Shown one piece after another: positions 3,024-63,860 of a DNA stretch of 64,000 nucleotides. The translations under genes and the position numbers were made by a program. Position 1 is the first letter of the stretch. The number at the start of each line of letters is the position of its first letter. The DNA is taken from contig CAWIEK010000049.1 of NCBI GenBank assembly GCA_963835065.1, positions 288,001 through 352,000 of the forward strand. Reading direction: 5' to 3'. Below the pieces are notes generated by a model. It searched no databases, was not told where the DNA came from, and saw only the letters and a list, made by a program, of their open reading frames with translations. The stretch is from an uncultured Chthonomonadaceae bacterium (GTDB lineage Bacteria > Armatimonadota > Chthonomonadetes > Chthonomonadales > Chthonomonadaceae).

Positions 3024-3114
3024 GGTGTTCGGTATTGGGTGTTGGGAAATGCGTACCTGCTTAACACAAGATAACATGCGAGTAAATCGAAAACCAACAC
3101 CCAATACCCAACAT
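3024..3114. repeat. Inverted pair of GGTGTTG/CCAACAC heptamer arrays upstream of hpt
   Basis: ggtgttc-ggtattg-ggtgttg (3024-3044) and ccaacac-ccaatac-ccaacat (3094-3114). Confidence 0.8.
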
Positions 3115-3190
3115 CCACCTACACTATATATTCACACTCCCACTGACTTTTAGAAGGTCGAGCCACCACTATTTTGAAAAATTATGAAAT

Positions 3191-4864
3191 TCATTCCCAT
3201 TCGATAGTGGCGGGAGGTTTGGAACTGATGTCGTAAACAACGCGGTTGATGCCGGGAACTTCATTGACGATGCGGGCGCTGATGCGTTCCAGCACATCGT
3301 AAGGGATACGCGCCCACTTCGCGGTCATAAAATCGTCGGTGGTCACGGCGCGTAAAATGATGGGATGGGCATACGTGCGCTGATCTCCCATGACGCCCAC
3401 GCTGCGGATCGTCGCCAGTACCGCCAGCGCCTGACTGTACTCCCGGTAAAGACTGGCCGCGTGAAGCTCGTTCAGGAAAATTTCATCCGCGCGCTGCAAG
3501 GTGTCCAGGCGTTCGGCGGTAACATCGCCCAGGATGCGGATCGCAAGGCCGGGTCCGGGAAAGGGGTGACGCCAGACAATGCTGTCCGGCAGGCCGAGTT
3601 CAGAGGCGGCGGCGCGGGCCTCGTCCTTGAACAGCAGCCGCAGGGGTTCGATTACCTTTAAAACCATGTCTTCGGGCAGGCCACCGACATTATGGTGTGT
3701 CTTGATGGTCTGCGCGTGCTTGCTGCCGCCCGATTCGATTACATCCGGGTACAGCGTTCCCTGTGCCAGAAACTCCACTCCCTGTAGATTATCGGCATGT
3801 TCTTCAAAAACGCGCACAAACTCATTGCCGATAATTTTACGCTTTTGTTCCGGGTCGGTAATTCCCGCCAATTTCGCCAGAAACCGCTCCCGCGCATCGG
3901 CGTAGATAAGGTTGATACCGAACGCGGCGGCGAAATCGTCTCGCACCTGTTCTGCTTCGCCGCGCCGCAGCAGGCCGTGATCTACAAAAATGCACGTCAA
4001 CTGATCGCCAATCGCCCTGTGCATCAGCGCTGCCACGCAGCAGCTGTCAATGCCGCCGGAAACGCCGCACACAACGCCTGCCGTACCCACTGTTGCGCGA
4101 ATTTGGGAGATAGCTTGTTCTACGAAATTGGCAGGCGTCCAGGTTCCCTGACAGCCGCACGGCCCCAGAACAAACGCCCGCAGCAGTTCGGCTCCAAAAG
4201 GTGTATGCGCCACTTCGGGATGGAATTGAACGCTGTACAAGCGCCGCGCTTCATCAAACATCGCGGCGACGGGCGTACTGGCCGTCGTAGCCGCGACAGT
4301 AAAGCCGGGTGGCGGAGCCAGTACCGTATCGCCGTGACTCATCCAGCAAGGCAGTTTTGCGCCTTCACTGGCGATGTTCTTAAAAAGAGGTTCGGCGCGA
4401 ACTACGGTTATCTCTGCATCCCCATATTCCCGTTCCTGCGCAGGCCGCACTTCCCCACCCAACTGATGCGCCATTAACTGCTGGCCGTAGCAGATACCCA
4501 AAATGGGAACGCCGAGATTATATATGTCCGCGTCGGAATGAGGAGCGCCGTCTTCATACACGCTGGACGGCCCGCCTGAAAATATAATGCCGCGCGGCTT
4601 TCGCGCCGCGAGTTCTGCCGCCGGCGTATTGAAGGGCAAAATTTCGCTGTAAACATGACATTCGCGGACGCGCCGAGCAATTAGCTGCGTATACTGAGCG
4701 CCAAAATCCAGTATCAGCACCAGTTCCTGAGCAGCCTTGACGCTTTCCTGTTCCTGAACCGTTGTCGCAGACGCGCCGGAACCATCATCAACCCTGCTAT
4801 CGAAACGGGAAACAGGGTCGGCATTGAGCGCGAGTTCGCTTATCGGCATGGGTTCTAATTGCAT
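3191..4864 (-). CDS. guaA: GMP synthase (glutamine-hydrolysing)
   Basis: [57 protein letters not shown]. Start uncertain. Confidence 0.98.
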
Positions 4865-5194
4865 AATGCGGGAGTTTCCTGAATTCGCGCCGGTGCAAAA
4901 AGGCACACAGACTGCGCGGGTTTGTTCGGAAATCAGTATTGGAATATCGGGGTCGAACAGGGATTGACAGCGAATGACAGATACTCAAGAATTCGCCTGA
5001 AGTCACCTTCGGCGGGTATCGGGTCACAAGCAAGAACAATGTAAAAAGAGTAACCGGGTTAAAAGGGAAAAGACGCAAATGCCACGTCAGTGCAGAACGA
5101 ACATGCCAGTGCAAAGCCAAAAACACAATTGGGGCAACAATGGCCTGTGGGCAAACGCGGAGGACCAAGCGCGGAAGGGCTTGATTTCTCTTCT

Positions 5195-6152: not shown

Positions 6153-6331
6153 ACCCGCCCTCTATTTCCCACATCAAGATTATCACTCTTACGACTTCCA
6201 CATCTCGCCACGAAATCTTATACCCCGTTCAACGCAGAACTAAGCCAAACAGTTCCATCAGAAGTGGAGAGTGCTGAGTGAGTGTGAGAGTGAAATGGGC
6301 TTCTACTCCCCATTCCCTACTCCCTACTCCC

Positions 6332-7669
6332 TTATACCGTCGCCTGCACACTTGTCATAAACAGCAGCGCCAGAACGGCGAGAATGGCTAACAAGGCGGC
6401 TCCGGCATGGCCTTTGTACTTGGGAGGGAAGCAAGCCTGCCAGCCCATTGCCAGCAGCAGGCAGATCGGCAGCATCGCCGGGTACAGATACCGTCCTTGC
6501 GCCTGAAAATACTTGCTCAGAAAAAGCGCAAACGACGCGCCGACAAGAATTAACGTTGCCATCAGCAACTGAATGAACTTCTGCTGCGCTTCCGTGAATA
6601 CGGTTTTGCGGACGAAATGCAGGCGTATCAACCCACCCAACGCGCTGATGCAAACCAGCAGGGGCAAAATGTAAATCTGAATGGGCAGAAACAATTGATC
6701 GCCAATCCTGGCTGAATCCTTGTTGCCGTACACAGCCCAAAAACTGAGAAACGAGCGTAACGAAACGGCTTTAACATACTCGAACGTTCCAATATGCGCA
6801 ATAAACGCGCTTGCCTGCGCCGTGCCGCCAAATGCCTGATTAAAGGTTTTCAGCGGCAGCAGTTCCCCGTACAACTGCTGATTGCGAACCAGCCACCACC
6901 CGCTGATAACGAGCATCAGCGTCAGCGCCCACAGCAGATTGCGGGCAAGATTGGCCGCAGGTTCCCCACCCCGCCACAGCAGCGCAAGCGCCAGCAATGT
7001 CACCGGCAGGAGCAGCAGCGCGGTTACTTTCGTCAGCAGGGCAAGGCCGAGGAGGATGCCGAGCCATCCCGCCCGCCACAGGGAAAAACCGCGCAGCAGG
7101 GATTGCGCCAGCAGCCACAAACACGCGCTGAACCACGCTTCCAAAAGAACGTCATTGTTGATCGTCGAGGTAATGGCGATATGGGACGGCAATAAAGCGG
7201 CAACGCCTGCCGCCACAACAGCCAGAATCGGCTCATCGGGGAACATCAGGCGGGCAGTGGAATACACGAGCAGGATACAAACAAGGCCGAGCATAATGGA
7301 CGCGACCCGCATTCCCTGTCCGCCCAACGGCACAAACAGGCGCGTCCACACGTAATACAACGGCGGCTGATGCCATTCATACGCTTGCCCGCTTTTGTCC
7401 AGCGTAGCCGACGCCTGCGTGGGCAGATGCCCCGACACCAAACTTTGTACGTAACGAACATGCGCAGCCTCGTCCGGCGCGTTTTGATAGCCCGTTTGCC
7501 CAACCGGAACCCAACTCGCGTGAAGCCCTGCCAGAACCAGATAAACTAGCAGAAGAAGGGGCAGTACGGCCTTCCACGCTCCGGGCAGGGGTTGCGGCGC
7601 GGGCGGAAGCGGCGACAGGGGCGGGCCGGGATCGCTCAAAAGCGGCTTACGGCGCGGCGGACGGCTCAC
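6332..7669 (-). CDS. GT-C fold glycosyltransferase (family 39/ArnT/DUF2142-like) membrane protein
   Basis: APDEAAHVRY, YEWHQPPLYY, INNDVL, LALLTK, QAQGRYLYP; multiple TM helices. GTG start overlaps the upstream TGA and has a GGAGG RBS. Confidence 0.85.
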   Translation of the reverse strand: MSRPPRRKPLLSDPGPPLSPLPPAPQPLPGAWKAVLPLLLLVYLVLAGLHASWVPVGQTGYQNAPDEAAHVRYVQSLVSGHLPTQASATLDKSGQAYEWHQPPLYYVWTRLFVPLGGQGMRVASIMLGLVCILLVYSTARLMFPDEPILAVVAAGVAALLPSHIAITSTINNDVLLEAWFSACLWLLAQSLLRGFSLWRAGWLGILLGLALLTKVTALLLLPVTLLALALLWRGGEPAANLARNLLWALTLMLVISGWWLVRNQQLYGELLPLKTFNQAFGGTAQASAFIAHIGTFEYVKAVSLRSFLSFWAVYGNKDSARIGDQLFLPIQIYILPLLVCISALGGLIRLHFVRKTVFTEAQQKFIQLLMATLILVGASFALFLSKYFQAQGRYLYPAMLPICLLLAMGWQACFPPKYKGHAGAALLAILAVLALLFMTSVQATV

Positions 7670-9979
7670 GGCTTCCCTCCCTGTGGCGCAATGCTTGACG
7701 GCGCGACATTTTGCGGCGTAACATTCGGCGACATGCCTTGGGGCGCGGCGTTCGGCGCATCGCTCGTACTTTTCATTTGCATCACCACGCAGCCATGTTC
7801 GTTGAAAATCGGCGTCCACAAGCCCCGCTTGATGGCGTCGCCCATCAGTTGATGCCCCCGATCTCCCGCCGCGCCTGTGGTCAGGCCCTCCACATACCAC
7901 TTTTGCAGCGCATCAACTTCCACGCCGTTCGGCCCACCCGGAAAATCAGGGTCACGAGTTCGGCCCGTTGTTTTGCGCCGCCTGATTGAGATTTATCAAG
8001 GCGTATTCAATCCCGTGCCCGCGAAACCACACGGTCAGTTCCGCGCCGTTTTGCAGCGTTTCGTAAGGAATGTAGGACGAGTGCTGCTGATTAGCCCACA
8101 CATACAACCGATCCAGATAAAAGCCCCGCGTTTCATCCACAAGAGCGATACCGGCGCTTGGGGGAGTGTTCTGGTTAATCCATTGTTCGGCATCATAAGC
8201 GTCGAAGTGTCGGCGTAAATCCATGTCCCATGCCTGCGGCTGCGCCAGATTAGCGAACAGGGTCGGAACCGACACGCTGGAAGGCATTTGTCCCAATTGC
8301 GTCAACGCCCTGCGCTCATCCCCATTGGCGTTCATCGGCAGCGTACACACAGACAGCAGCACATAGCCAGCCTGCCCGAAAACAGCGACAATGCCCAATA
8401 CGCCCGGCACTTGGGCGAATGTCAGGCGTGGCAGGCGTTTCGCGCTACTACTGTCAGCATTACCGCTACTCTCCGTAAACACAAACCGACACGCGGCATA
8501 CGCGCCCACAATGGCAAACAAAGGCATTACCTGAATCAGATAACGCCCCACCTGCGACAATATAAACCACGCCAGAACCTGCCCCATGCCAAGCCACAGC
8601 AGACCGCGAACGGCAGGCGATATTCGACGGACAAACGCTAAGGGAAACACAAGCGCGGCGTACAATCCCCCAAACAACGCCGTAAAATTATATTCCCCCG
8701 GATTGCAGTACAGGACGCTCGATTTCACGTTCGGGCGCGTCAGCAAATGCCAGGGAACCTGTAGGATATTCAGCAGCTTGCTGCGAACATCCGGCGACAG
8801 AGGCTTAGTTCCGAACTTGTCCTGCTCCGATTGATAGGAAGCCGCGCGTTCCAGACTCCAATAACGGCTCTGCGGAAACGCTTTCGTCACAAACGGATAC
8901 ACGGGATTGCGCATCACAACGATGTTCTTCACGTACCAGGGCGACCCAATCGCCAGCGCAACACCGACAAACAACGCAGTCTTTCGGATTGGAACCCGCG
9001 TCAACAACAGCATGATCGTCATCAACCCGAACGGCACAAGCGCCAGATACTTCATCCCCAGCGCGAAGCCCATGAGCGCCCCGGAAAGGAGGAGAAGGGA
9101 ACAGGGAACAGGGAACAGGGAACAGGTATCTGCTTGTTTTGATAAAGGCGGTAATTGTACATCTTCTGTCTTCTGTCTTCTGTCTTCTGCGACCTCCCTG
9201 TTCCCTAACCCCGAAACAAGCGCAAAGGCGGCGAGCGTGGTGTACGTGGCGAGGCCGACATCTATGTACGCGACACTGCACTCCCACAGTACCATCGGGG
9301 TCGTGACGAACACGACGGACGCCAGCCAGCCGACAACAGGCCGCAATACCCGGCTGCAAAAGCCGATTATGCCCATCACAAGGAAGCCGGCTAACAGCAA
9401 ATGGAACAGATTGGAAAGCGCGTAGCCATTGTAAAGCAATCCTGCGGCGAAGAGCATTTCCAGGGTAAACGGAAAGTTGCTGTGATGCTCGGTAGGAAGG
9501 TTGGGAATACGATGCTGAAGCAGAAACAGCTTTGGATCGGCAAGATGATAGGAAAGCGCGTCCCATTCCAGCGGTCCCGGCGGACGAAAACAGGCGAGGA
9601 GCGCAATTAAGCCGAAAACAATCAGAAAAATTACGCAGGCGATAATCAGCCCCGTTTCCAAGCCCCACTTTGATGCCGATGCGACAGCAGCGTTACGCTT
9701 GCGCTGTCGCCAAGACTGAAAATCGCTGCCATAACCACGCCAACCACCCCACCCTGCCGCTGCCAGCGCCAGCCACCAACAAGTGACCGGCCAGAAAGAT
9801 AACAGTCCTGCCAGGCCGAGCGCGTACACGCCATAGGCGGCAATGCCCAGGCCAAGCGCCCCGCCATAAGCCAGGCGTTCCAAGGGCGCAAAGATGGGAA
9901 GATCAAGCCGATCCAGCAGCGCGCGTCCAACGGCAGCGGCAATGCAAGCAAATAGTATTATCAGCAACAGTGCAATCAT
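7666..9979 (-). CDS. GT-C-type (ArnT-like) polytopic membrane protein; apparent frameshift near 7957-7975
   Basis: WDALSYHLADPK, AYIDVG, GMKY, PWYVKN...NPVYPF. ORF 7952-9979 continues in another frame (RDPDFPGGPNGVEV...) to a TGA at 7666 that is coupled to the next gene. Confidence 0.75.
9096..9206. repeat. In-frame heptamer-repeat insertion: (AGGGAAC)4 ... (TCTTCTG)4 ... CCCTGTTCCCT
   Basis: Seen directly; translates as GNREVAEDRRQKTED...[10 protein letters not shown] within the membrane protein. Confidence 0.9.
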
Positions 9980-13826: not shown

Positions 13827-14363
13827 ATAGACCTGAAAGACAGGGAAACGCTGCCACGCCATAATCATGTACTGAACCGCCTGCGCATTTTCTATTATGC
13901 GCCCGTTGCAGTTTGGATTGTCGTGATTTTTCTCGCGTCCACGCAGTTGGGAGCGGAACAGGTCACGCTTCATGCGCTCATCCGCCTGCTGAAACTGCTC
14001 ACTCCAGATCAGGCCAGCGCCTTGAACGCGGACGCCATCGGCAAAACCAACTTCTTAATTCGCAAATGCGCGCACCTCAGCGAGTACGCCATTCTCGCCC
14101 TGCTCACCGCCCGCGCCGTACAGTTCGGGCACGAACGCTTGAAGTGGCAGGCTGTCGCGGCAGGTTTCGCGTTCAGCGTCGCCTACGCCTGCACGGATGA
14201 ATGGCATCAAAGTTTCGTCGGCGGCAGAACGTCCAGCATCCACGACGTTTTCATAGACGCCTTCGGAGCCGCCTTCGCCCTGACGCTGATGCTGCTCTGG
14301 TTTCGTATCAAGGCGTATGAACGCAGTTTGAGGGAAAAGGAGACAGGAAAAAGGGAAAAGTAA
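13824..14363 (+). CDS. VanZ family membrane protein
   Basis: RKCAHLSEYAIL, YACTDEWHQSFVGGR...DVFID. Confidence 0.9.
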   Translation: MIDLKDRETLPRHNHVLNRLRIFYYAPVAVWIVVIFLASTQLGAEQVTLHALIRLLKLLTPDQASALNADAIGKTNFLIRKCAHLSEYAILALLTARAVQFGHERLKWQAVAAGFAFSVAYACTDEWHQSFVGGRTSSIHDVFIDAFGAAFALTLMLLWFRIKAYERSLREKETGKREK

Positions 14364-14419
14364 CAGCGTTGTTCAATGGGCGCATTGTCCTTTTTCCTTT
14401 TTCCTTTCTCCTTTTCCCT
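14331..14419. repeat. 30-bp inverted repeat built from GGAAAAG-type heptamers
   Basis: 14331-14360 versus 14390-14419, 28/30 complementary; the left arm encodes the VanZ C-terminus. Confidence 0.85.
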
Positions 14420-16832: not shown

Positions 16833-17687
16833 GTGAAATTCACGAAAATGCACGGTATCGGCAACGACTTTGTTGTTGTGAATACCTTAGCCGAAGTTTT
16901 AGAAGAAGCGCAGTACGCAGACAGCAGCCGTCGCCTGTGTCACCGGAAGTTCGGCGTGGGCGGGGATGGACTGCTCCTGGTTCTGCCATCCAAAGTCGCC
17001 GATTACAAAATGCGGATGTTCAATCCCGACGGCAGCGAAGCGGAAATGTGCGGCAACGGCATCCGGTGCTTTGCCAAGTATATTTATGACCGCAAAATGG
17101 CTTCGGATACGCAAGTCAAGGTGGAAACGCTTGCCGGCGTCAAGGTGCTGCGCCTGCTGCTCCGCGCCGGCAAAGTGGAAGCCGTCCGCGTAGATATGGG
17201 GCAACCCCTGCTATTGCGCTCAGAAATCCCTATGCGTGGCGACGACAATGGCCGCGTCATCGGCGAAGGCTTGAAAGTGGAAGGGCGCAAGTTCGATATT
17301 ACCGCTGTTTCTATGGGCAATCCGCACGTTATTATTTTTGAGGATCATGTGGAAGAGTTTCCCCTTACCAAATGGGGGCCGCTCATCGAAACGCACAAAG
17401 CCTTTCCCGAACGCGCCAACGTCCATTTCGCGCAGATTTACAATCAGGGAGAGATTCGAATACGGACGTGGGAACGAGGCGCGGGCGAAACTCTTGCCTG
17501 CGGCACGGGAGCCTGCGCCAGCGTGGTAGCCTGCGCGCTCAACAACAAAACCGGGCGCAATGTCCTTGTGCATTTGCCGGGCGGCGACCTGCGTATCGAA
17601 TGGATGGGCGACAACCGCGTCGTCATGACCGGCCCTGCCGAACAAGTCTTCGAAGGCGAGATAAATCTGGATGACCTCCACTTTTAG
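16833..17687 (+). CDS. dapF: Diaminopimelate epimerase
   Basis: KMHGIGNDF, EMCGNGIRC, MGNPH, WERGAGETLACGTG. Confidence 0.97.
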   Translation: MKFTKMHGIGNDFVVVNTLAEVLEEAQYADSSRRLCHRKFGVGGDGLLLVLPSKVADYKMRMFNPDGSEAEMCGNGIRCFAKYIYDRKMASDTQVKVETLAGVKVLRLLLRAGKVEAVRVDMGQPLLLRSEIPMRGDDNGRVIGEGLKVEGRKFDITAVSMGNPHVIIFEDHVEEFPLTKWGPLIETHKAFPERANVHFAQIYNQGEIRIRTWERGAGETLACGTGACASVVACALNNKTGRNVLVHLPGGDLRIEWMGDNRVVMTGPAEQVFEGEINLDDLHF

Positions 17688-17874
17688 ATTTTCGATTTTC
17701 GATTGCCGATTTCCGATTTCTGCTTATTCAAATGGCTATACTCCCTGCCTGAATAATGCAGCCAACCTGTTAGCGTGGAGCATCCAATGACAGAATCTAA
17801 CTCGCCTTCCGCCACGCATCCCCAATCGGCAATCGAAAATCAGCAATCGAAAATCGAAAATCGGCAATCGGCAA
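17682..17874. repeat. Inverted pair of CGATTTT/AATCGAA-type heptamer arrays
   Basis: Left arm 17682-17719 follows dapF; right arm 17823-17874 encodes QSAIENQQSKIENRQSAI at the FGGY kinase N-terminus. Confidence 0.85.
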
Positions 17875-19586
17875 TTCTGATCGGCGTAGATGTCGGCACG
17901 GGCAGCGCGCGAGCGGGGCTGTTCACCGCTGCGGGCGTTCGCTTGGCGTCCGCTGTGGAACCCATACAAACCTGGAAGCCACGCCCTAACTTTGTGGAGC
18001 AGTCTTCGGAAGACATCTGGCGGGCTGTATGTAAAACGGTGCGCTCCTGTCTTGAAGCGGCAGGCATTACGCCCGAAGCCGTTGCCGGCATCAGCTTTGA
18101 CGCCACATGCAGCCTTGTGGTTCTGGATCAGGAGGATAAGCCACTTACCGTTGATTTGGAAGGCGACAACAACCGCAACATCATTGTCTGGATGGATCAC
18201 CGCGCCCTTGAAGAAACGGCTGCCATCAACGCGGGCGGCTATGACGTGCTGCGCTATGTGGGCGGCAAAGTCTCGCCCGAAATGGAAACGCCCAAGCTGA
18301 AGTGGCTCAAAGCGCATTTGCCGCAAACGTGGGCAAACGCGGGCAAGTTCCTTGATCTGGCGGATTACCTGACGTATCGCTCCACCGGCAGCAACGCGCG
18401 CAGCCTGTGTACGGTTGTCTGCAAATGGACGTATTTGGGGCATGAAGGCGGAAGCGGCAGGTGGGATACCGATTATTTCCAGTCTATAGGCATTGCGGAC
18501 GCTCTGGAAGGCGAGAAAATCGGCAACGATGTTCGCCCGATGGGATCGCCACTGGGAAAATTGACCGACAGCGCGGCAGCAGACCTGGGCTTGACGACGC
18601 AATGCAGCGTCGGCGTCGGCATCATTGACGCTCACGCGGGCGGGCTTGGCCTGTTAGGAGCCGTGTTTCAAAACGAAGATCAACAGGAGCCTCAAAACGA
18701 ATTTCAGGACACGCAGGAAAGGCATGTAAACGGAGAGCAGGCAAACAGCACAGCCGAAAGCGATACGTCCCGATTGGAAACCGCGCTTGCGCTCATCGGC
18801 GGAACCAGCAACTGCCACATGGCCGTATCCCCCACCCCGAAGTTTATCAGAGGCATTTGGGGGCCCTACTACGGTGCAATGGTTCCCGGCCTGTGGCTGA
18901 CGGAGGGAGGGCAAAGCGCGGCAGGCAGCGCCATTGACCACGTAATTGCCGACCATGCCAATGCGCCGACCCTGAACGCGCAGGCGCAGGAACAAAATGT
19001 CACCGTCTACCAATTGCTGAATTCCGAATTGGATCGGCTGCAGAAGAACAGTAGCCTGCCTTATCTCGCCCTGCTGACTCGAGATATGCACATTCTCCCC
19101 TACTTTCTCGGCAATCGCTCGCCCAATGCGGACCCGTATGCCCATGCCATTATAGACGGGCTGACACTCGACAAATCCTTATCCTCACAGGCGCTCCGCT
19201 ATTACGCCACCCTGCAGGCGGTTGCTTATGGAACGCGGGACATCGCGCGCGCCATGAACAAATCGGGCTACCGCATTGATACGCTGTATGTCACAGGCGG
19301 CGGAACCAAAAATCCTCTCTGGCTTCAGGAACATGCGGACGCAACGGGTTTAACATTAGTTTTACCGGAAGAACCCGAAGCGGTTCTGCTTGGCAGCGCC
19401 ATTCTCGCGGCAGTCGGAGCCGGCATTTACCCGGACGTGTTGACCGCCATGAAAAACATGAGCCGAACCGCGCAAGTTATCCATCCCAACCCGAAAACCG
19501 CCGCTTACCACTCCGCCAAATTCAACATCTTCCGCAGCCTGTATCACGAGCAGCAGCAAAGACGCGAAATCATGGCAAAATTCTAA
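17787..19586 (+). CDS. FGGY-family pentulose (D-ribulo)kinase
   Basis: GVDVGTGSARAG, FDATCS, VWMDHRA, EGGQSAAG, GNRSP. Confidence 0.92.
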   Translation: MTESNSPSATHPQSAIENQQSKIENRQSAILIGVDVGTGSARAGLFTAAGVRLASAVEPIQTWKPRPNFVEQSSEDIWRAVCKTVRSCLEAAGITPEAVAGISFDATCSLVVLDQEDKPLTVDLEGDNNRNIIVWMDHRALEETAAINAGGYDVLRYVGGKVSPEMETPKLKWLKAHLPQTWANAGKFLDLADYLTYRSTGSNARSLCTVVCKWTYLGHEGGSGRWDTDYFQSIGIADALEGEKIGNDVRPMGSPLGKLTDSAAADLGLTTQCSVGVGIIDAHAGGLGLLGAVFQNEDQQEPQNEFQDTQERHVNGEQANSTAESDTSRLETALALIGGTSNCHMAVSPTPKFIRGIWGPYYGAMVPGLWLTEGGQSAAGSAIDHVIADHANAPTLNAQAQEQNVTVYQLLNSELDRLQKNSSLPYLALLTRDMHILPYFLGNRSPNADPYAHAIIDGLTLDKSLSSQALRYYATLQAVAYGTRDIARAMNKSGYRIDTLYVTGGGTKNPLWLQEHADATGLTLVLPEEPEAVLLGSAILAAVGAGIYPDVLTAMKNMSRTAQVIHPNPKTAAYHSAKFNIFRSLYHEQQQRREIMAKF

Positions 19587-19596
19587 ACTGGAGACA

Positions 19597-20628
19597 ATGA
19601 CCGGTATGAGTATTCAGCCTGTAATGGTAACAACCTGGAAGTTTGGAGTGGCAGCGGGGCGCGTGGGCTGGCAGAAATTGGCAAATGGGGCTTCCGCTCT
19701 TGACGCCATCGAAGCGGCAGCCAACGTTACGGAACTCGATCCTGCCGTGAACTCTGTGGGATACGGCGGGCGCCCCAATGCTGAGGGCGTTGTTGAACTG
19801 GATGCTGTCATTATGGACGGCATAAGCCATTCGGCGGGAGCCGTTGCCGGCTTAACAGGTATCCGAACGCCTATTTCCGTCGCGCGCCGGGTGATGGAAC
19901 AAACGCCCCATGTGATGCTCGTCGGCGAGAATGCAAAAAGATTTGCCGTTCAGCAGGGGTTCGTAGAGGAGGAACTCCTTACGCCTGACAGCCTGCAAAA
20001 ATGGCGCGAATGGCAGCGCAGCGCCAATCACGCCGATGTCGCTCATTTCGAGGTCGGCCCGAAAACAACGTCACCGTATGGAGAACCGCATGGCAGGCCC
20101 AACCCCAACGCAGCCGCAGCCGATCTGACGCCGGACAATCACGATACCATCGGCCTGTGCGCTCTGGACGCGCGTGGAAATCTGGCGGGCGGCTGCACAA
20201 CCAGCGGGATGGCGTGGAAAGTGCCCGGACGTGTCGGAGATTCCCCTATCATCGGCAGCGGGCTGTACGTGGATAACGAAGTAGGCTGCGCGGCAGGCAC
20301 GGGGCACGGCGACGAAATGATGAAAGCCTGCGTCACCTACCGCGTCGTGATGCTGATGGAACAGGGCCGCACCGCGCAGGAAGCTTGTGAGGAAACCCTG
20401 CGCTACCTCCTCCGCAAGCGCGATCCCGGCCAGTACGACAACTATGGCGCAGCCCTCATCGCCATCCGCAAGGACGGGCAAATCGGCAGCGCGGCTACGC
20501 GCTCCGGCTTCGCCGCCCCCGACAGATTATGGCAATGGGTCATAACCGACAGCCCCGAACCCACCTTAGAGGAAGGCCCCTACATCTCACGCAAAGCAAT
20601 AATTCCTACCCTGACCCCTGACTCCTGA
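19597..20628 (+). CDS. N(4)-(beta-N-acetylglucosaminyl)-L-asparaginase / type 2 asparaginase (Ntn hydrolase)
   Basis: SVGYGG.P, HDTIG autocleavage site, GRVGDSPIIGSGLY. Confidence 0.92.
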   Translation: MTGMSIQPVMVTTWKFGVAAGRVGWQKLANGASALDAIEAAANVTELDPAVNSVGYGGRPNAEGVVELDAVIMDGISHSAGAVAGLTGIRTPISVARRVMEQTPHVMLVGENAKRFAVQQGFVEEELLTPDSLQKWREWQRSANHADVAHFEVGPKTTSPYGEPHGRPNPNAAAADLTPDNHDTIGLCALDARGNLAGGCTTSGMAWKVPGRVGDSPIIGSGLYVDNEVGCAAGTGHGDEMMKACVTYRVVMLMEQGRTAQEACEETLRYLLRKRDPGQYDNYGAALIAIRKDGQIGSAATRSGFAAPDRLWQWVITDSPEPTLEEGPYISRKAIIPTLTPDS

Positions 20629-20648
20629 CCACTGGCTCCTACTTAAAC

Positions 20649-22547
20649 ATGAAGCACGTCATTATTGGAACCGCCGGGCACGTAGATCACGGCAAAACCA
20701 CGCTGATTCAAGCGCTGACGGGAACCAATCCCGACCGGCTCAAAGAGGAGCAGGAGCGCGGCATGACCATTGACATTGGTTTCGCCTCGTTGCGCCTGCC
20801 GGACGGCACGATTGCGGGCATTGTGGACGTTCCCGGCCACGAACGGTTCCTCAAAAACATGCTGGCGGGCGCAAGCGGCGTGGACGTGGTACTGCTCGTG
20901 ATTGCCGCAGATGAAGGCGTAATGCCGCAGACTATCGAGCATCTGGACGTGCTGCGCCTGCTGGACGTGAAAAACGGCGTCGTCGCGCTGACTAAAATGG
21001 ACATGGCCGAAAAGGAATGGACGGATGTTGTCGAGGAAGATGTGCGCGAACATCTCAAAGACACCTTTCTGGCGCAGGCCCCGATCATTCGCGTTTCCGC
21101 CAAAACCGGCAAGGGACTGGAAGCCTTGAAAAAAGCGCTGATGGCCGCTGTCAGCCGCGCCGAAGCCCGCAATGCCGGCCTCCCCTTCCGCCTGCCCATT
21201 GACCGCGTGTTTACGCGCCCCGGTTTTGGAACGGTTGTTACCGGGACACTGGCCGCAGGTACAATTCGGACCGGGGATGCCGTTGAAATCGTGCCGCAGC
21301 GACTGAGCGCCCGTGTGCGTGGCCTGCAAGTGCATGGGCAAAAGGTCACGGAAGCGGAAGCGGGATCGCGGGTCGCCATCAATCTTGCGGGCGTGGACAA
21401 TGCCGACCTGGAACGAGGCGCGCAGGTCACGCCACCCCATGCCATTGCCCCTACCACCACATTCGACGCCACGCTGCGCCTGCTCCCCAATGTCGAAAAA
21501 CTGCTGGAGGATCGAGCGCGCGTCCGTCTGCACATGGGAACGGTGGAAGTGTTGGGACGTATCCGCATACTCGATACCAAATCCGAACTTGCGCCCGGAG
21601 AACGCGCTTTTGTGCAATTTCGGGGCGAAACGGAATTTGTCGCGGCGCGTGGAGATCGTTTCGTCGTTCGTTCCTACTCCCCGATGACGGTCATTGGCGG
21701 CGGCGTAGTGCTTGACGCGCACCCCACCCGGCATCGCAAGGCGGAAGCGGATACGTTGACCGCGCTGGAAGCCAAAGAGCGAGGTACGCCCGAAGACCTT
21801 ATAGACACATTACTGCTCAAATCCCCTACAGGCATTTTGCGCTCCGAAATCCCCCCGGCGACGGGACTGACGCCAGGAGAGACAGCCGCAGCTATAGAAG
21901 TTCTGTTAGCCGCAGACAAAGCCGTCCTGCTTCCGCATGAGCGTATCATCAACACCCTTGTACTTGTCGGCCTGACTCAGCGCGCGGAAGAAGCGGTTGA
22001 GCGGTTCCACAACCAGTTTCCGCTGCGTCCGGGAATGCCGCGCGAGGAATTACGCGCCGCTCTTGGACGAAACGTAGACAGCAAAGCCTTTGGTTCGCTG
22101 CTGTCGCGCTGGCACAAAGAGGATCGGTTTACTTCCGAAGGCGCATTTGTGCATCGGGCGGATTTTACCGTTCAGTTGACCGACAAACAGCAGCAGATGC
22201 TGAAGCGCATCGAAGAGGTTTATAAAGCCTGGGGTATTGCCGTTCCTGCCATTGAAGATGTTGCTAAAGAACTAAAAACGCCTGTGGACGCGATCACCTC
22301 CCTGCTGAAAGTCGGACAGGAACAAAAGCGCTTTGAAAAAATCGAAGATGGCATCTATTACCACGTAGATACCATTGCCGGTCTTCAGCAACTGTTACGC
22401 GCTTATCTCGCAGAACACGACAGCATCAGCGTAGGCGAATTCAGAGATTTAACAAGTTCCAACCGGCGCTACTCCCTGATGGCCCTGGAGTTTATGGACA
22501 CAATCCACTTCACCCGGCGGCAAGGCGATCAGCGAACCTTATACTGA
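20649..22547 (+). CDS. selB: Selenocysteine-specific translation elongation factor
   Basis: [39 protein letters not shown], and C-terminal winged helices (FRD...RRY). Confidence 0.96.
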
Positions 22548-27163: not shown

Positions 27164-27226
27164 TCTCAATGCCCGAACACCCGAATACCTGAACACCCGC
27201 AGACTGTGACATGAAGGAGAAAAAAC

Positions 27227-30262: not shown

Positions 30263-30372
30263 AGTTGATAGTTGATAGTTCGTAGTTGATAGAAGATGCA
30301 GAAACTACGAACATTGGGCGCTCCGCCGTTTGAATTACGAACGGCAAGCAACAAGCGATAAGAAAGAGTAAT

Positions 30373-33958: not shown

Positions 33959-34058
33959 CCGTCAATGTTGAACCGTGTTCACCGTCGCTTAATGAAAACG
34001 CTGCGTCTCCGAACACCAAACACCTAATACCCAACACCCTTCTTTTAAGGAGTTTATC

Positions 34059-40335: not shown

Positions 40336-40500
40336 GCGTGTCTCTTCCTTATCGAATGTGGTGGTTGGTGATTGGCGTTCCTTATGTTCCTATGTTTGCG
40401 CGTAGGATACTTGTCATTACGTTTCCGCGAACTGCGCAGGAACCATCTGCCTCTTCAACCGCATCCAACCAATCACCAACCACCAAGCACCTGTCACCAA

Positions 40501-43601: not shown

Positions 43602-43654
43602 GATCTCTCCTCCTTATTCTTAACCTAACCAACCGGACTTCTCCAACCATCCCC

Positions 43655-43690
43655 TAATATCTAATGCCTAATACCTAATGCCTAATGCCT
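43655..43690. repeat. CCTAAT(G/A) heptamer array
   Basis: cctaatatctaatgcctaatacctaatgcctaatgcct immediately after the mutL stop. Confidence 0.8.
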
Positions 43691-45794: not shown

Positions 45795-46033
45795 AGCAAA
45801 CCCCATTCTTACCCATTGGCCGTAACTGGCAGAGTAATGCAGCCTAATTACAAGAACCGGCCTCTCAACACCCAACACCTAATACCCAACACCCACAAAC
45901 GAATAACGTAGACAGAAACTAACTACACCCTACAATAACCATACCCTAAATCCGCACATTTCGCATAGACCAACAGGAGAGTTGCTTAAGAACCTCTTCC
46001 TATCCTTACAGGAAAAGCCCAATTTTCACCGCA

Positions 46034-46539: not shown

Positions 46540-46564
46540 GCGTGTTCTTCCTATCGCTTCTTCT

Positions 46565-47854
46565 CTATCGCTTCTTCTGCAACGCGGCTTCTATTTCCTG
46601 CTGCAGCCCCTGCCCGCGCAGTGAGTTGCCCATCGCCAGAATCTTGCCCGTATTCCCATCAACCAGAAACGCATGGGGAATGGAATTCACGTTGAACAAC
46701 TGCGCGATTTCCGCCTTCCAGAACCCGCCATCATAGACCTCCGGCCAAGCCATTCCCTTTTGGAATACGAATTGGCCCAGCGCCTGTTTTTTGTTCGCTT
46801 GATCCAGGCTGATGCCCAGAATGTCAAAACCGGCGGTATGATACTGGTTGTAGGCCGCAACGATGTTCGGAATCTCTTCCAGGCAGGGCGGGCACCACAT
46901 CGCCCAGAAATCCAGCAATACCACTTTCCCCTTGTAGTCATCCGGGAAACTGACGGGCTTGCCATCCACTGTCACCGTCTCGAAGTCCAGAATCTCCACG
47001 CCCACTTTCATATCGGCGGCGGTCAGGGTGCTTCCGGCGCTCTTGCCCGACTTCTTCAGTGTTACCAGCGTACCCCGCGCGTCAATCTGCGCCACTTCGT
47101 AGGTCGCGCCGCTCAATCGGAACGGCTTGCCGGCGTCGAAGGTTTCTTTCTCATCGAACCTGCCGTCGCCATTGCGGTCTATAAACAGCGTTACTCGCGC
47201 AGATTCGCCTTCCTCATGCTGAAATTCGTTGAACTTGCCGTTCACGCCCTGATCCACCAGCGCCATCTTGTACGCCCGGCTGCCGATAGTCAGCGTTCCG
47301 ACCCGCGCATACTCCCGATTGTAGGTTACGTCCGTCCCGCTGACCCCAAACGACAGCGTACTCGGCACAGACCCCGCTCGTCCCGGAATGTCATAATGCG
47401 CGACAACCGGCACTGTGGCAGCCCAGCCATTTGTATCTGCAGACGCGCTGGCAACGCTCACCGTTTTCGCTCCGGCTTTGAGCGCGGGCTTTGCCACGAT
47501 CAAGGTTACAGGCGCATCATCCGTCAGATCGCCGTTGCCGTTGGCATCCACGTACAGGCTTGGGCGCGAAGTCTGCCCGTCCGTGTCAAGAACAACAATG
47601 ATTTTGTTGTTCTTGGCATTGCCCAATGTCACCGTGCCATACTTAGGCTGGTACTTGTAGCGCGGCTCTTTGACCAATCCGGCAGGCTTTTCCGCGCTGA
47701 GTGTCAGTTTTTGCGCCGCCATTGCGTGCAGGCCACCCGTCGCATAGGGTTCCAGAGTGCCCACAACCACATCTTTCGCCAGTGCCTGTGTTGTGAGGGA
47801 GGCCAAACCCAATCCCACAACGGCGCACAACCCTTTAAGGGATGATTTCAACAT
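46565..47854 (-). CDS. Secreted protein with a C-terminal TlpA-like thioredoxin domain
   Basis: Signal peptide; DxNGxG Ca-binding-like loops; LLDFWAMWCPPC, SIPHAFLVD. Confidence 0.88.
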   Translation of the reverse strand: MLKSSLKGLCAVVGLGLASLTTQALAKDVVVGTLEPYATGGLHAMAAQKLTLSAEKPAGLVKEPRYKYQPKYGTVTLGNAKNNKIIVVLDTDGQTSRPSLYVDANGNGDLTDDAPVTLIVAKPALKAGAKTVSVASASADTNGWAATVPVVAHYDIPGRAGSVPSTLSFGVSGTDVTYNREYARVGTLTIGSRAYKMALVDQGVNGKFNEFQHEEGESARVTLFIDRNGDGRFDEKETFDAGKPFRLSGATYEVAQIDARGTLVTLKKSGKSAGSTLTAADMKVGVEILDFETVTVDGKPVSFPDDYKGKVVLLDFWAMWCPPCLEEIPNIVAAYNQYHTAGFDILGISLDQANKKQALGQFVFQKGMAWPEVYDGGFWKAEIAQLFNVNSIPHAFLVDGNTGKILAMGNSLRGQGLQQEIEAALQKKR

Positions 47855-50078: not shown

Positions 50079-53306
<3,228 letters not shown>

Positions 53307-53922
53307 CCCTGTACTCGCAACAAACGCGCTTGCAACACAACGCAGAACCACAACCACCTCAGATACTTGCGTACCAAAAGCAGAGCAACCCTGCACCGCC
53401 CATGAAGACGCTGCCGCCCACCCCGCGTCCCGACCCACAACACACGCCGCGCCTCTGCCCACAAGGAACAGAAGAAACGAACACGCATTAGTGGAAGAAC
53501 ACAGAAAGAAGAGGCAACACCTACACACGCCACAAACACACCTGCCTGAGAACAGAAGCACTACACGCACAAACCTGCGCTTCTCACAACAACCGTCTAA
53601 CTGTATCTTCATGCACAGTGCTGCGCCAAAAGGCACAACCCTGCGCACTTCCGTTCAAGCGCGCGCACCTACAAACTCGTTACATACGCTTCTACAAACA
53701 CACACTAACTCGCTCTTACCACCTACGGCTGCTTCCTGCTGCTCCCAACACGCCAAGACCATAAGCCAACTCACACTCGCAAGCCAACTTACTTTCGTAA
53801 GCGAACCTACCCCGGCAAGAAAACTCACAACCCCGACCTGCCAAAAACAACAAGCGGAAATCATCACGCAAGCGCAAGATGCGGCATTTACCCCTGCATC
53901 TCTCTACACACTTCATTATTCC

Positions 53923-55308: not shown

Positions 55309-55356
55309 CCCATCAATCCTGTTAATCCTAATAATCCTCTTAATCCTGTCTATTCT
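55309..55356. repeat. AATCCTnnn nonamer array
   Basis: aatcctgtt-aatcctaat-aatcctctt-aatcctgtc, intergenic. Confidence 0.75.
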
Positions 55357-55424
55357 TCTCTATTCTGGATTGCCTTATCTTCATCTGTCACCATAAGCAG
55401 ACAGACATTTCTACTATCTACTGT

Positions 55425-56205
55425 CTACTTCCTTCGGCTTTGTCCGAACGGGCAAATATCCAGTACCACGCAGCGCCCGCAATCCGGGTTAAAATGATAG
55501 CAGCAGCGCTGTCCGTGCAGCATCAGGGACTCATGGTTGTCGTACACCGTTTGCGCATCCCAATCCGTTTGGCAACTGCGCTTCCAAAATAGCGTGGGCG
55601 GGGCCAACATCCACGCTTGCCGGCAGCAACCCCAACCGTACCGCCACCCGATGATGGTGACTGTCAACCGGCAGCGCAGGACGGCGCAGGCGGCTGAACA
55701 GCAGCACCGCCGCGCTTGTTTTCGGCCCCACGCCCGGCAGCAATTCGAGCCAAGCCCGCGCTTCGGGAACCGGCAAGTCGGCCAGAAAATCCAGTGATAA
55801 CTCTCCATCGCGCTTTTCTCCAATCAAGCGCAAAATCTGCTGCAAGCGCGGCGCTTTCTGCTCCGGCCAGGTACACGCAACTATAGCGTTTTCAACTTCT
55901 GCAATTGGCGCGTCCCGCACCATTGCCCAATCCGCAAACCGGGCGCGAAGTTGCCGAAACGCCTTACCAGAATCCGCATTCTTCGTCCGGTGTGACAGCA
56001 GCGAGGAAACCAATTCGCTCATCGGATCCAATTCGTGAAAGTAGGGTATCGGGCAGCCATACTCGCAGCACAGCCGCTCATGTACCAGCAATGCCTTTGC
56101 TTTTACTTCCGGCGAAAGTGGATCGAACGCCAACGTTTGCGCCTTTGCCGTTCGAGTCTTGGCGGACTGTGTTTTACTTTTTGGTTCTGCAGTTGTTTCT
56201 TCCAC
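55425..56205 (-). CDS. Endonuclease III (HhH-GPD, Fe-S) with a frameshift near 55568
   Basis: LLSHRT, LPGVGPKT, PVDSH; the Fe-S motif CCYHFNPDCGRCVVLDIC lies in a second frame after CCAAAC. Confidence 0.85.
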
Positions 56206-57340: not shown

Positions 57341-58273
57341 TTATTCCAATCGGCCACTACTGGCTTCGAGCCATGGGTACTCTGCGACGGCCTTCATTTT
57401 TTCTAAACCTGTGCGGGCCACAAGGCGCGGGTCTTGCGCGTAATAGTTCGCGTTGAACAGTTCCAACGACAACACGCCGTCAAAACCGATATGCTGCAAG
57501 ATGGGTATGATTTCCGCCCAGGGCGCAATGCCATCGCCGGGATAGATGCGGTCGGCATCGGTAATGGCAATGGGCGCAATGTCGGGAAAATCGTTGACGT
57601 GGAAGACGGGAATAGCGGACGGGCGCAGCAGGTTCAGCCCCGCATAGCCCGACCCGCCCTTGTACAGATGGTACACATCCGGCAGAATACACGCTTCGGG
57701 ATGCCCTGACTCGATGGCGACAAAGGCCGCTTCGCCCAACTTCTGCAAGGTTTGCGAAAAGCCCCACACTTCCACCTGCGGCACAACTCCAAACTCCGAA
57801 CCTATGTCCAACAAAGCGCGGTACCGTTCCGCCGCCAGCCACAAATCAATGTCGTTGCGCTCCGTCGCCTTGAACGCGGGCGCAGCCAGGCGCTTGCCGC
57901 CAATTGCCGCCAACAACTCCATGTTGCGCCGCGCTTCTTCCAGCGCCGCCTTGCGCTCCTCGGCGTCATCCACAATCCACGCAAAAAAGCCAATCGCGCC
58001 TTCCACGCTCAGGCCGCTGTCTTCCAGCCGCCTGCGCAAATCCGGCAGCGAACCGCCCTCCGCCACATAGCGGTCAATCTCATCAATCCACGGCTCAATC
58101 GCCTGATACCCCGCCTGCGCCGTAATATCGATCACTTCGGTCAGCGGCAGTTTATGCCCCCGCAGCGTACTGGTATTCAAACCATAGCGAAATGTAGAGG
58201 TCCTTGAAACCAATGGCTTTATCCTTATCAAAAGAGAATAGAACACCCGCTCTACGCAAACCACACGCCTCAC
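57341..58273 (-). CDS. Sugar phosphate isomerase/epimerase family protein
   Basis: LNTSTL, AGYQAIEPW, DVYHLYKG, FHVND, RIYPGDG, LSLELFN. Start probably near 58213. Confidence 0.9.
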   Translation of the reverse strand: MRRVVCVERVFYSLLIRIKPLVSRTSTFRYGLNTSTLRGHKLPLTEVIDITAQAGYQAIEPWIDEIDRYVAEGGSLPDLRRRLEDSGLSVEGAIGFFAWIVDDAEERKAALEEARRNMELLAAIGGKRLAAPAFKATERNDIDLWLAAERYRALLDIGSEFGVVPQVEVWGFSQTLQKLGEAAFVAIESGHPEACILPDVYHLYKGGSGYAGLNLLRPSAIPVFHVNDFPDIAPIAITDADRIYPGDGIAPWAEIIPILQHIGFDGVLSLELFNANYYAQDPRLVARTGLEKMKAVAEYPWLEASSGRLE

Positions 58274-58770
58274 CTATCGCCGGTATCCTGCCTCAAACGC
58301 TCCGCTAATTCGCGTAATTCTCTTACGGACACATTCACATCATCAAGCATTTGCTCAAGATGCTGAATACGCTCCTGCCATAGCCGTTCTTCCTGATGCG
58401 TCAATCTGTGTTCCACGAGTTGAGACCGATTCAAGCGCAGCTTGCGGATATGAAACAAGCCGGTGACGTTCAAAGCCTGAAGGCGTCCATAATCGTCCTC
58501 CCGGAAATGCAGGTTCACATCATCCAAAAGCGGATGCAGTAAACGGTGTTCTGGCGCGGAAGTGGACAAGTCAGGAAAGAAATCACTCTTGAACTGATTG
58601 CATCGGTTACAGGCATAGACGAGATTATCGTCGCTGTCGTCACCATTTCTGGACACAGGGCGAAAATGGTCAATCGTTAATTCACCCCCGCTACTGGTTT
58701 CGGATACGCCGCAATAGCCGCAGCGAAAGTCGTAGCGTTGCCGTACTTGATCTTGTTTCGGGTGTGCCAT
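58270..58770 (-). CDS. HNH endonuclease
   Basis: RCGYCG, TIDHFRP, NLVYACNRCNQFK, LLHP, LRLNR. Confidence 0.92.
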   Translation of the reverse strand: MAHPKQDQVRQRYDFRCGYCGVSETSSGGELTIDHFRPVSRNGDDSDDNLVYACNRCNQFKSDFFPDLSTSAPEHRLLHPLLDDVNLHFREDDYGRLQALNVTGLFHIRKLRLNRSQLVEHRLTHQEERLWQERIQHLEQMLDDVNVSVRELRELAERLRQDTGDR

Positions 58771-60285: not shown

Positions 60286-60290
60286 AATCA

Positions 60291-60330
60291 TCAATCCAAA
60301 ATCGGAAATCGCCAATCGGAAATCGTCAAT
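60291..60330. repeat. AATCG(G/C)(A/C) heptamer array
   Basis: aatccaa-aatcgga-aatcgcc-aatcgga-aatcgtc directly after the feoB stop. Confidence 0.75.
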
Positions 60331-62475: not shown

Positions 62476-62996
62476 TACCGTTCGTCCTGCTTCACGCTTG
62501 CATTCTTCACGTGTTCAATGCTTACATCTTTGATGAGCGCGGTTTCGCTTGCGGCGAATTTGGAAAAATCAAAATCCGCGTCTTCCGCTTCCTCAAACGC
62601 TGTCGGCGCATCACCAAGCCACACAAGCGCCGCTTCCTCGCGCCGCAGCGACAACTGGTAATTGCGCACTTCCACGTCCAATGGCCCGCCGAACGCCGCC
62701 GCGCGCACCACCTGCACATGCGTACCCGGCGTCATGCCCATTTCCAGCAGGCGCAAGCGTCCCTGCGCGCTGCCGCACAAACGGCTGATATACCCGCACT
62801 CGCCCGGCTGCAAATCGGCCAGCGTCAGGCCGTCGCGTGTCAAGGAACCACGCCGGGGCGCAGCTTCGGTATCCAATGCCGATTGCGCGTTCGCGCCGAA
62901 CTGCCCGGCCAGGCTCAAATCCTGCTTCCGCTTGCGTTCCAGCAGGGTCGCAAACCAGCAGCCCAGCGTTTTTTTAGATGAAGGTTGCATAAGCAA
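62475..62996 (-). CDS. feoA: Ferrous iron transport protein A (extended N- and C-termini)
   Basis: LADLQPGE, RLLEMGMTPG, GGPL, LSLRREEA. Start uncertain. Confidence 0.9.
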   Translation of the reverse strand: MLMQPSSKKTLGCWFATLLERKRKQDLSLAGQFGANAQSALDTEAAPRRGSLTRDGLTLADLQPGECGYISRLCGSAQGRLRLLEMGMTPGTHVQVVRAAAFGGPLDVEVRNYQLSLRREEAALVWLGDAPTAFEEAEDADFDFSKFAASETALIKDVSIEHVKNASVKQDER

Positions 62997-63116
62997 ACAG
63001 TGTCCTCAATCGCGCATTCTTCGCGCGTTTCCTACTGCTGCATCTTGTGACGTAACTATCTGCGGAAAGTTTCAATCTCAACTTACCGGTTTCACCAACT
63101 ACCAGCCACCAACCAC

Positions 63117-63860
63117 TTACCCTCGCGCAAAAACCCAGATGCTGTTGGCGACATCCCGCCCGATAGCAATCGGCGCAGCCTGCCCGAAAACATCCAGCGT
63201 CATCACATCGCCAAATGGCGTTCGCGCTTTTAGAATAAGGGGCGTACCGGGCATCAGGCCAATATCCATTACATAACTCAGAAATTCCAGTCGCTCATCG
63301 GAGATTTTCGCAACCGTCAACTCACTGCCCACTTCACACTCCGCCAATCGCCGCGAACCATCCTTGAAAGTAGCGTCAATCGGGTTTCCGTGTGGGCAGG
63401 TCGTCGGGTAATTCATGGCATGGGCAATACGGTCTGCCACGGATTCGCTGATAAAATGTTCCAGTTTGCAGGCCAGTTCGTGAACGTCTTCCCACGGCAG
63501 TTCCAGAAAATCTACCAGCATGCGCTCCACAAGCCGATGCTTGCGCAGCAATCCAATGGAAAGCGTTTCGCCCTTCGGCGTCAGGCGCACACCCTTGTAC
63601 GGCGTGTGTTCCACCAGCGCCAATTCCGACAATTTTTTCAGCATCGTGGTCACGGAAGCGGGCGCGACATTCATATACTTGGCAATATCACCCGTGCCCA
63701 CCACTTCGAGTTCTTCCTGCAGGCGATAAATGCCTTCGGTGTACTCTTCGACGGTTTCTTTTTCTTCCTGCCGCTCCCGGTCGCACGTCGCAGGCCGACA
63801 ACTCGCCGGAACCCGCAACAGCACTTCTCTGGCTTCTTTTTTCGCTTCCTTAACAGGCAC
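63117..63860 (-). CDS. DtxR/MntR family metal-dependent transcriptional regulator
   Basis: EEYTEGIYRL, SVTTMLKKL, RKHRLVE, CKLEH, CPHGNPI, C-terminal FeoA-like domain. Confidence 0.93.
   Translation of the reverse strand: MPVKEAKKEAREVLLRVPASCRPATCDRERQEEKETVEEYTEGIYRLQEELEVVGTGDIAKYMNVAPASVTTMLKKLSELALVEHTPYKGVRLTPKGETLSIGLLRKHRLVERMLVDFLELPWEDVHELACKLEHFISESVADRIAHAMNYPTTCPHGNPIDATFKDGSRRLAECEVGSELTVAKISDERLEFLSYVMDIGLMPGTPLILKARTPFGDVMTLDVFGQAAPIAIGRDVANSIWVFARG

Follow-up and report, generated by a model that had tools for sequence, protein, structure and literature searches.

Polarised heptamer arrays in a bacterial genome may be the arms of mobile hairpin elements associated with four-helix-bundle and GxxExxY genes

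Introduction

A 64,000-nt stretch of DNA from an uncultured bacterium (contig CAWIEK010000049.1, positions 288,001 to 352,000; hereafter the window) is strewn with short tandem arrays in which a word of seven to nine nucleotides is repeated a few times, often in inverted pairs at gene boundaries, and the question raised by these arrays is what puts them there. A sequence-only reading of the window had proposed an active repeat-depositing process in a host that did not look cyanobacterial. The host is indeed most likely a member of Armatimonadota, since its Rho homologues at 89% identity are named Chthonomonadaceae. The heptamer repeats GGGAATC of Xanthomonas and GGGGA(C/T)T of Nostoc occur as about four units, G-rich after stops and C-rich before starts when read on the coding strand, and as inverted pairs (Rehm et al. 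2015, PMC4692102), and TAACTGA repeats form a further case (MacGregor 2015, PMC4679880). The heptamer repeats of cyanobacteria, Xanthomonas and Beggiatoaceae have been described without a mechanism of spread, and the four-helix-bundle family PF05635 has solved structures and lacks a function.

The arrays analysed here have fixed ends and begin at stop codons, their pairs run G-rich arm first, the spacers between paired arms are homologous, one element is a recent copy, the repeated word matches the clade of an associated protein, and arms are gained or swapped singly. The polarised pairs, homologous spacer families and single-arm changes go beyond what the sequence-only reading had described. 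On balance we favour the view that the arrays are arms of selfish hairpins resembling REPINs (repetitive extragenic palindromic (REP) sequences forming hairpins), recognised by the proteins of arm-flanked genes, here called cassettes, and spread via templated break repair.

Results

Arrays in the window, the genome and its relatives

Of the 18 arrays listed from the window, 17 are called by Tandem Repeats Finder (TRF), the exception being a degenerate G-rich run at 40358 that is seen in the sequence itself; the coding arrays (9096/9162 and 37104-37211) and those in rRNA (51091/51170, 51816/51905 and 52958) are likewise called. Across the 8.0-Mb genome (G000), a census at a score of at least 40 and at least 2.8 copies, with one local shuffle as control, gave 2,370 arrays of period 7 against none in the shuffled genome, 627 against 2 of period 8, and 223 against 2 of period 9. 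Three to five copies, the range that had been claimed, are present in 3,197 of 3,624 non-redundant arrays, whose median length is 27-34 nt for periods 7-10. Where at least ten units had been claimed, there are 103 distinct heptamers, the top four found 150-281 times each and the two commonest being AACTATC (281) and AATGCCT (245). In samples of 120-140 kb each, the related genomes G005, G013 and G014 have 0-2.5 arrays per 100 kb, compared with about 45 here at a slightly lower score cut-off than in the census of relatives; G001 has 11 and G023 17.5. As the shuffle, the relatives and the reused units indicate, array density is not that of the controls and the units are shared between loci.

The arms of the window outside the 23S rRNA gene are as follows (G002 is a sister species).

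3024-3117, plus strand: a G-rich arm (GGTGTTG, 3024-3046) and a C-rich arm (3094-3117) forming a matched pair around a spacer; hairpin z -5.3.
6303-6332, minus strand: arm, G-rich on the minus strand, beginning at the PMT_2 stop codon; in G002 the site is occupied by a different matched pair.
9096-9189, minus strand: unmatched arm pair, in frame within the open reading frame (ORF) 7952-9979; G002 has other units at the same position.
14331-14419, plus strand: matched pair between vanZ-like and metallo-beta-lactamase-fold genes; absent from G002.
17682-17875, plus strand: pair located at the stop of dapF, with the C-rich arm (17823-17875) predicted to be translated as part of the N-terminus of an FGGY kinase; absent from G002.
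20609-20640, plus strand: solo C-rich arm directly upstream of the selB start.
27172-27199, plus strand: solo C-rich 8-mer arm, called by TRF.
30263-30292, plus strand: solo G-rich arm immediately 3' of a TAA stop; absent from G002.
34012-34039, plus strand: solo C-rich arm preceding a ribosome-binding site.
37104-37211, minus strand: three stacked in-frame arms of different units inside metH, which is 63 nt longer than in G001.
40358-40491, plus strand: the degenerate G-rich run and a C-rich arm (40468-40491), upstream of metH.
43653-43690, minus strand: arm, G-rich on the minus strand, immediately beyond the mutL stop.
45866-45895, plus strand: solo arm upstream of mutL.
55315-55429, plus strand: 9-mer arm (AATCCTGTT, of the type flanking some GxxExxY genes) and a short 7-mer arm.
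60293-60330, minus strand: arm past the feoB stop.
63093-63116, minus strand: arm located at the stop of an Fe-dependent repressor gene and G-rich on the minus strand.

Arms have fixed ends, a polarity and a preferred place

An arm is about 30 nt long, and in each family one start phase and one end phase prevail, the end falling mostly on AG; in the AGTAGTC family the commonest start phase accounts for 74 arms and the next for 8, and the commonest end phase for 82 and the next for 4. The proposed inverted pairs are borne out, same-unit arms within 150 nt of each other being inverted in 614 cases and direct in 16, and the pairs are polarised: 639 of 706 inverted pairs within 800 nt have a G-rich left arm and 33 a C-rich one. 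Clusters run G-rich then C-rich (LR) 778 times, 544 of them unit-matched, and in the reverse order (RL) 7 times. The median matched pair is 116 nt long, and 137 of 537 have a spacer of 55-59 nt. The inner arms are matched in none of 24 LLRR clusters, and unmatched clusters make up 121 of the 150 deep inside ORFs (29 matched) compared with 215 of 770 elsewhere.

The contact with stop and start codons that had been noticed in the window is a matter of polarity as well, in that G-rich arms begin at stops and C-rich arms end before starts, mostly 5-35 nt upstream of the start codon (placement here uses our own gene calls, in which some starts are wrongly extended). The rule also holds for solo arms, with 304 G-rich against 37 C-rich after a stop and 130 C-rich against 31 G-rich before a start. 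Stop codons inside the unit are ruled out as the only cause of this adjacency by the stop-free AGGTTTC units, 44 of whose 48 arms begin between -3 and +10 nt relative to a stop codon.

Spacers are homologous and elements are copied

Spacers of the CAGTAGT family are collinear, with a mean identity of 53%, and occur in either orientation. Between nearest relatives the difference is 0.38 for the spacer, on a gap-penalised score, and 0.04 for the arms. Arm variants are concentrated at a few positions of the unit, and in 119 of 385 cases the partner arm mirrors the change, against 49.7 when shuffled. In the other families 385 of 504 spacers are singletons, mostly too diverged for clustering. A 117-nt element is repeated 3.9 kb away with one mismatch and unrelated flanks, and in this one near-identical pair, for which there is no empty allele for comparison, no target-site duplication is visible. 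Close likeness is commoner among copies that lie within 10 kb of each other, at 3 of 48 against about 15 of 7,113. That the spacer is old target DNA around which new arms were placed was put to a length test on 14 pairs, in which several 'empty' sites held degenerate arrays; this origin is unlikely because the spacers are homologous.

Searched without its arms, the spacer profile finds 67 copies at E<1 in the genome (one in the shuffled genome), all two-armed. Both arms are CAGTAGT in 51 of these 67 copies of the 55-nt core, a majority that is partly by construction since the profile was built from CAGTAGT-armed copies; the rest carry mostly related words and one carries AGGCATT. In the sister species G002 all three copies found of the homologous core have 8-mer arms of GGTAGAT(A/G), which is the word around that species' own gene of the same four-helix clade. 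G001 and G023 each gave a single weak match to the core pattern, without such an arm pair.

Arms bracket four-helix-bundle and GxxExxY genes

The sequence-only reading had named four-helix-bundle and GxxExxY proteins, endonucleases and reverse transcriptases (RTs) as candidates for the depositing activity and saw no responsible enzyme in the window. The first two hold up, at loci elsewhere in the genome, which has three PF05635 (four-helix-bundle; C8:32017, C25:14102 and C33:57207) and three PF13366 (GxxExxY; on C19, C39 and C3) genes, all outside the window, with proteins scoring above the curated cut-offs (PF05635/TIGR02436 and PF13366/TIGR04256). All six are flanked by a G-rich and a C-rich arm, the words being matched in five, and the three PF05635 genes sit in operons, not in rRNA. 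Among 54 four-helix loci (the best match from each of 30 genomes and 24 more matches), 43 have matched arms compared with 2 of 400 random genes, and 23 of 30 GxxExxY loci have inverted flanks compared with 5 of 30 in the direct-orientation control. The endonucleases and RTs examined lack such flanks: arrays flank neither of the window's nuclease genes (an HNH endonuclease at 58270-58770 and a Shedu SduA C-terminal domain at 35441-36262), and the RT, PF01797 and DUF559 genes of the genome lack matched bracketing arms.

The motif D-x8-E-x-K is kept in all three GxxExxY proteins, and going by the Pfam name it is probably that of a PD-(D/E)XK fold. The closest solved structure to the four-helix model is XCC0516 (template modelling score (TM) 0.95), followed by BT_0352 and then by Avd, the accessory protein of diversity-generating retroelements (DGRs); the solved structures of both PF05635 members have five chains each, and a structure atlas search with the fold returned PF05635 clusters only. 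A four-unit GGGAATC array lies between bccP and XCC0516, directly upstream of XCC0516 (Rehm et al. 2015 supplement, PMC4692102).

Several side observations concern these genes. The four-helix cassettes L022, L030, L038 and L045 have very long or internally inverted arrays on both sides. The acidobacterial four-helix genes L203, L213, L216, L217, L225, L232, L244, L246 and L257 have no array upstream; downstream they share a hairpin motif that presumably resembles an IS200/IS605 end, and these genes may be passengers in another element. A scan of long inverted pairs for an ORF between the same ends yielded 16 candidates, assessed by eye, and failed to pick up four of the known six cassettes.

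The repeated word follows the protein clade

Four-helix loci of clade A carry 8-mers in 11 of 12 cases and those of other clades 7-mers in 34 of 36. Similarity of words within a clade across genomes is 0.62 against 0.57, a value reached by none of 2,000 permutations (six rows without clade or array excluded). Outside the training set, 80 loci of the CAGTAGT clade span Acidobacteria, Cyanobacteria, Verrucomicrobia, Nitrospirota, Bacteroidota, Planctomycetota, Clostridia and others; matched arms occur at 52 of them and are 7-mers at 51, with the consensus CAG-[A/G/T]-A-[G/T/C]-N. A pattern fixed beforehand from the training clade fits 31 of these 52 loci compared with 4 of 37 in other clades. 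Among 201 genomes of the phylum, at least five three-unit matches to the pattern occur in 10 of 13 with the clade gene (called at 140 bits or more) and in 13 of 188 without it. In G023 the commonest word is that of its own cassette.

Inserts in the 23S rRNA gene

The same arms enter rRNA.

50082-53304, minus strand: 23S rRNA gene, 3,223 nt compared with a 2,925-position model, with three repeat-bearing inserts.
51083-51209, minus strand: hairpin insert with matched GGGAACA arms, in place of a tetraloop near model position 1895; z -13.1.
51816-51937, minus strand: hairpin insert located in the loop at model position 1218, its matched arms made of CAGTAGT; z -10.5.
52958-52990, minus strand: solo arm, G-rich in the rRNA sense, in a 5' insert; absent from G002.

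At model position 1895 the sister species has the tetraloop, and contigs of related organisms also show it empty; at position 1218 other units are present in G001 and G002. No sequencing run searched contained as much as half of the rRNA stretch, and contigs of other organisms across it show empty or different inserts, which say nothing on RNA excision. The window inserts are about 125-135 nt long and contain no ORF, and a second 23S copy (G000:C51:114802-118025) has the same three inserts, almost unchanged.

Turnover between species and single-arm change

Comparison with the sister species covered 1.70 Mb of the 7.5-Mb G002 genome, in which some frameshifts may reflect faulty assembly. Of 213 anchored array sites, 130 have an array in G002 as well, against 17 of 211 array-free junctions, and at the 130 shared sites the word is the same in 37 and replaced in 93. 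In an orthologous GxxExxY cassette (L105 compared with G002 L101) the right arm is kept and the left arm comes from a different family. Paralogous sites are provided by a separate dispersed repeat with 69 copies, of which 33 hold at least two units from one of six families at an identical site. Thirteen of the arm tracts mix families in register, a partner arm lies within 130 nt in none of the 33, and strongly supported sister copies carry different arm families, the bootstrap having not settled. Genome-wide families (6-295 arrays) exist for five of the six words and not for the remaining one. This repeat, of about 250 nt (e.g. L312, L313), gave no match in an Rfam search, and by eye its arm tract immediately precedes the Shine-Dalgarno sequence belonging to an opposite-strand micro-ORF of 9 codons. 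In sum, an active, sequence-specific depositing process draws support from the fixed arm ends, the near-identical 117-nt copy at an unrelated locus and the turnover between sister species.

Discussion

A templated-repair reading and its weak points

In the mechanism that we favour, a four-helix-bundle pentamer (for 7-8-mers) or a PD-(D/E)XK-like GxxExxY protein (for 8-10-mers) would bind the repeat unit and direct breakage of the DNA next to a stop codon or a pre-existing arm. Both free 3' ends would then be extended by copying G-rich units of another element, aligned on the shared AG, so that a long copy would yield the whole 116-nt element, a short copy a solo arm, and two different donors mismatched and stacked arms. 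Cassette genes would arrive and leave horizontally, with their words staying behind. Extension of both 3' ends is favoured because it meets whole-element copying, in-register single arms, the G-rich-first order and the clade-set word together. That the cassette proteins are the depositors we infer from their association with the arms; from the pentamer and the arm length one might guess that five subunits read four to five units. A bolder version, to which we give only tentative credence, is a new repeat-writing system in which each subunit of the pentamer recognises a single word of 7-8 bases and the protein, aided by a nuclease or polymerase, extends free 3' DNA ends in register by four to five copies of it, in the manner of telomerase, each clade thereby stamping its own word on its host genome, genes and rRNA included.

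Several results weigh against this picture. The bias of insertion towards gene ends could partly be selection, and the mirrored, inherited variants of the arms mean that arms are often copied, not written afresh. Co-inheritance instead of recognition could explain why words match clades. Related genomes are not independent, and without the four that shaped the pattern the clade-gene genomes with the word number 6 of 9; G088, G150 and G191 carry the clade gene with only 0-2 matches, and 13 genomes have pattern matches without the clade gene. G005 has a cassette and no array in 140 kb, and the two commonest words here, AACTATC and AATGCCT, have no cassette in an assembly that is 92% complete. 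The four-helix bundle has no known catalytic site. A stacking order in which new arms are always inner was rejected as well, the shared arm being outer in 11 cases and inner in 8, with some rows spurious.

Other explanations

The next candidate is a strict REPIN or miniature inverted-repeat transposable element (MITE), in which whole elements alone transpose and the solo, mismatched and stacked arms are products of later decay, deletion and ordinary recombination. Homologous, collinear spacers and the precise 117-nt copy are what such elements would leave, constant arms around a variable spacer are the REPIN pattern, and 23% of the 725 solo arms have a decayed partner compared with 0.3% on the wrong side. 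The remaining 77% show no partner trace, however, the tracts of the dispersed repeat stand alone and its well-supported sister copies differ in family, and RL junctions, which adjacent whole insertions predict, are as rare as reported above. In-frame sites in genes such as metH would also require a disruptive intermediate. We regard this explanation as unlikely.

Less likely again is an RNA-templated route, in which an Avd-like pentamer hands arm-bearing RNA to a host RT that extends target 3' ends, aborted or twin priming giving solo and hybrid arms. Avd is the nearest solved relative of the four-helix protein outside its own family (TM 0.83) and is a pentamer required by the DGR RT, arms follow stop codons and the coding strand, and the genome has two RT genes. 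But neither RT adjoins a cassette, and the Avd score is 27 against a family cut-off of 80 bits. A-specific mutation of spacers in the manner of a DGR is ruled out, since changes are mostly transitions with no A bias (conservation A 0.60, C 0.67, G 0.64, T 0.74). Spacer orientation is random with respect to transcription, and RNA folding shows no sense-strand bias (p 0.21, n 223). The RT genes themselves lie at G000:C49:681456-683817 and C50:52482-53912; the gene after the first is presumably Cas1-like.

Replication slippage with no mobile element, the arrays being kept by the host as mRNA hairpins or protein-binding sites at gene ends, is improbable: it suits the tight placement at stops and upstream of ribosome-binding sites, the stable hairpins, the sites common to sister species and the dispersed-repeat tracts that mostly use units one or two changes apart, but it cannot copy a 55-nt spacer to 67 loci, yield fixed ends, use a small set of words hundreds of times over or exchange the word at most shared sites, the arrays are nearly absent from three relatives, and the homologous spacers largely refute it. 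Host selection may nonetheless act as a filter on the sites where elements survive.

Relation to known systems

The arrays share features with several described classes. With the heptamer simple sequence repeats (SSRs), or short tandemly repeated repetitive (STRR) sequences, of Rehm et al. (2015) they share about four 7-mers, stop/start polarity and inverted pairs, and polarity and pairing are already in print for Xanthomonas. The portions available of Rehm et al. (2015) and MacGregor (2015) describe one word per genome, compared with more than 100 here, and those passages make no link to a gene, though the Rehm supplement lists the array upstream of XCC0516. The quadruplex-forming G3 tracts of that class, as described there, are absent from the commonest units AGTTGAT, AGGCATT and AGTAGTC, and most words here lack G3. 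In the available account of the Coxiella 23S intervening sequence (IVS), heptamer repeats precede the S23p ORF and a 28-bp stem is cut by RNase III (PMC4990558). Two of the window's rRNA inserts likewise form a hairpin, closed by a long terminal stem, in the loop of a 23S helix. In the ORF-bearing IVSs (S23p/PF05635), as far as that account goes, the S23p ORF sits in the loop, whereas here the rRNA inserts are ORF-less, the cassettes lie in ordinary operons and there are hundreds of gene-less copies.

REPINs with their REP-associated tyrosine transposases (RAYTs) combine conserved inverted arms, a variable spacer and a cognate gene (Bertels and Rainey, bioRxiv 10.1101/2021.07.10.451892). The likeness, judged from the part of that work available, extends to an extragenic doublet of about 100 nt with hundreds of copies. 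On the same basis REPIN arms are short palindromic REPs and the arms here direct tandem arrays, and the partner there is a Y1 HUH RAYT, compared with two full-length PF01797 genes here that are flanked by other palindromes, plus two partial matches. Unlike REPIN-RAYT as there described, the partner here is patchy across phyla, the elements enter ORFs and rRNA, and arms change singly. MITEs share the terminal inverted repeats and the copying to new loci. Avd, a pentameric nucleic-acid-binding barrel (bioRxiv 10.1101/2023.10.23.563531), shares its four-helix fold in the available description; DGRs differ in having an RT beside the gene and adenine-specific mutagenesis, and the score here is below the Avd family cut-off. 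The system works like REPIN-RAYT, shares its full form with ORF-bearing IVSs, and lacks defining features of both.

A literature search, covering few subscription journals and one supplement, found no paper that ties genome-wide arrays to PF05635 or GxxExxY genes. New here are the clade-word match out of sample, the swap of arms on one core between species and the gain of single arms. Both the spread of heptamers and the function of PF05635 are now directly testable because one genome links the two and names protein-word pairs. The process also puts peptides into enzymes and hairpins into 23S rRNA. If a repeat-writing system does exist, it would be the common source of bacterial heptamer repeats and ORF-bearing rRNA IVSs.

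Other repeats and neighbouring genes

Two PF01797 (IS200/RAYT-like) genes and a DUF559 gene (G000:C42:76532, C51:103107 and C49:487382) each have a long palindrome of their own around them, and therefore further repeat-gene systems coexist here. The selB gene of the window occupies 20649-22547, its solo arm ending 9 nt upstream of the start, and its presence means that the genome probably uses selenocysteine. A 33-nt tandem repeat (an 11-residue unit) at 23670-23843 in a BON-domain gene is unrelated to the heptamer arms, an 18-nt repeat at 53762-53810 precedes the 23S gene, and a pyrimidine-rich repeat of 14 nt occupies 46545-46578 between two minus-strand genes.

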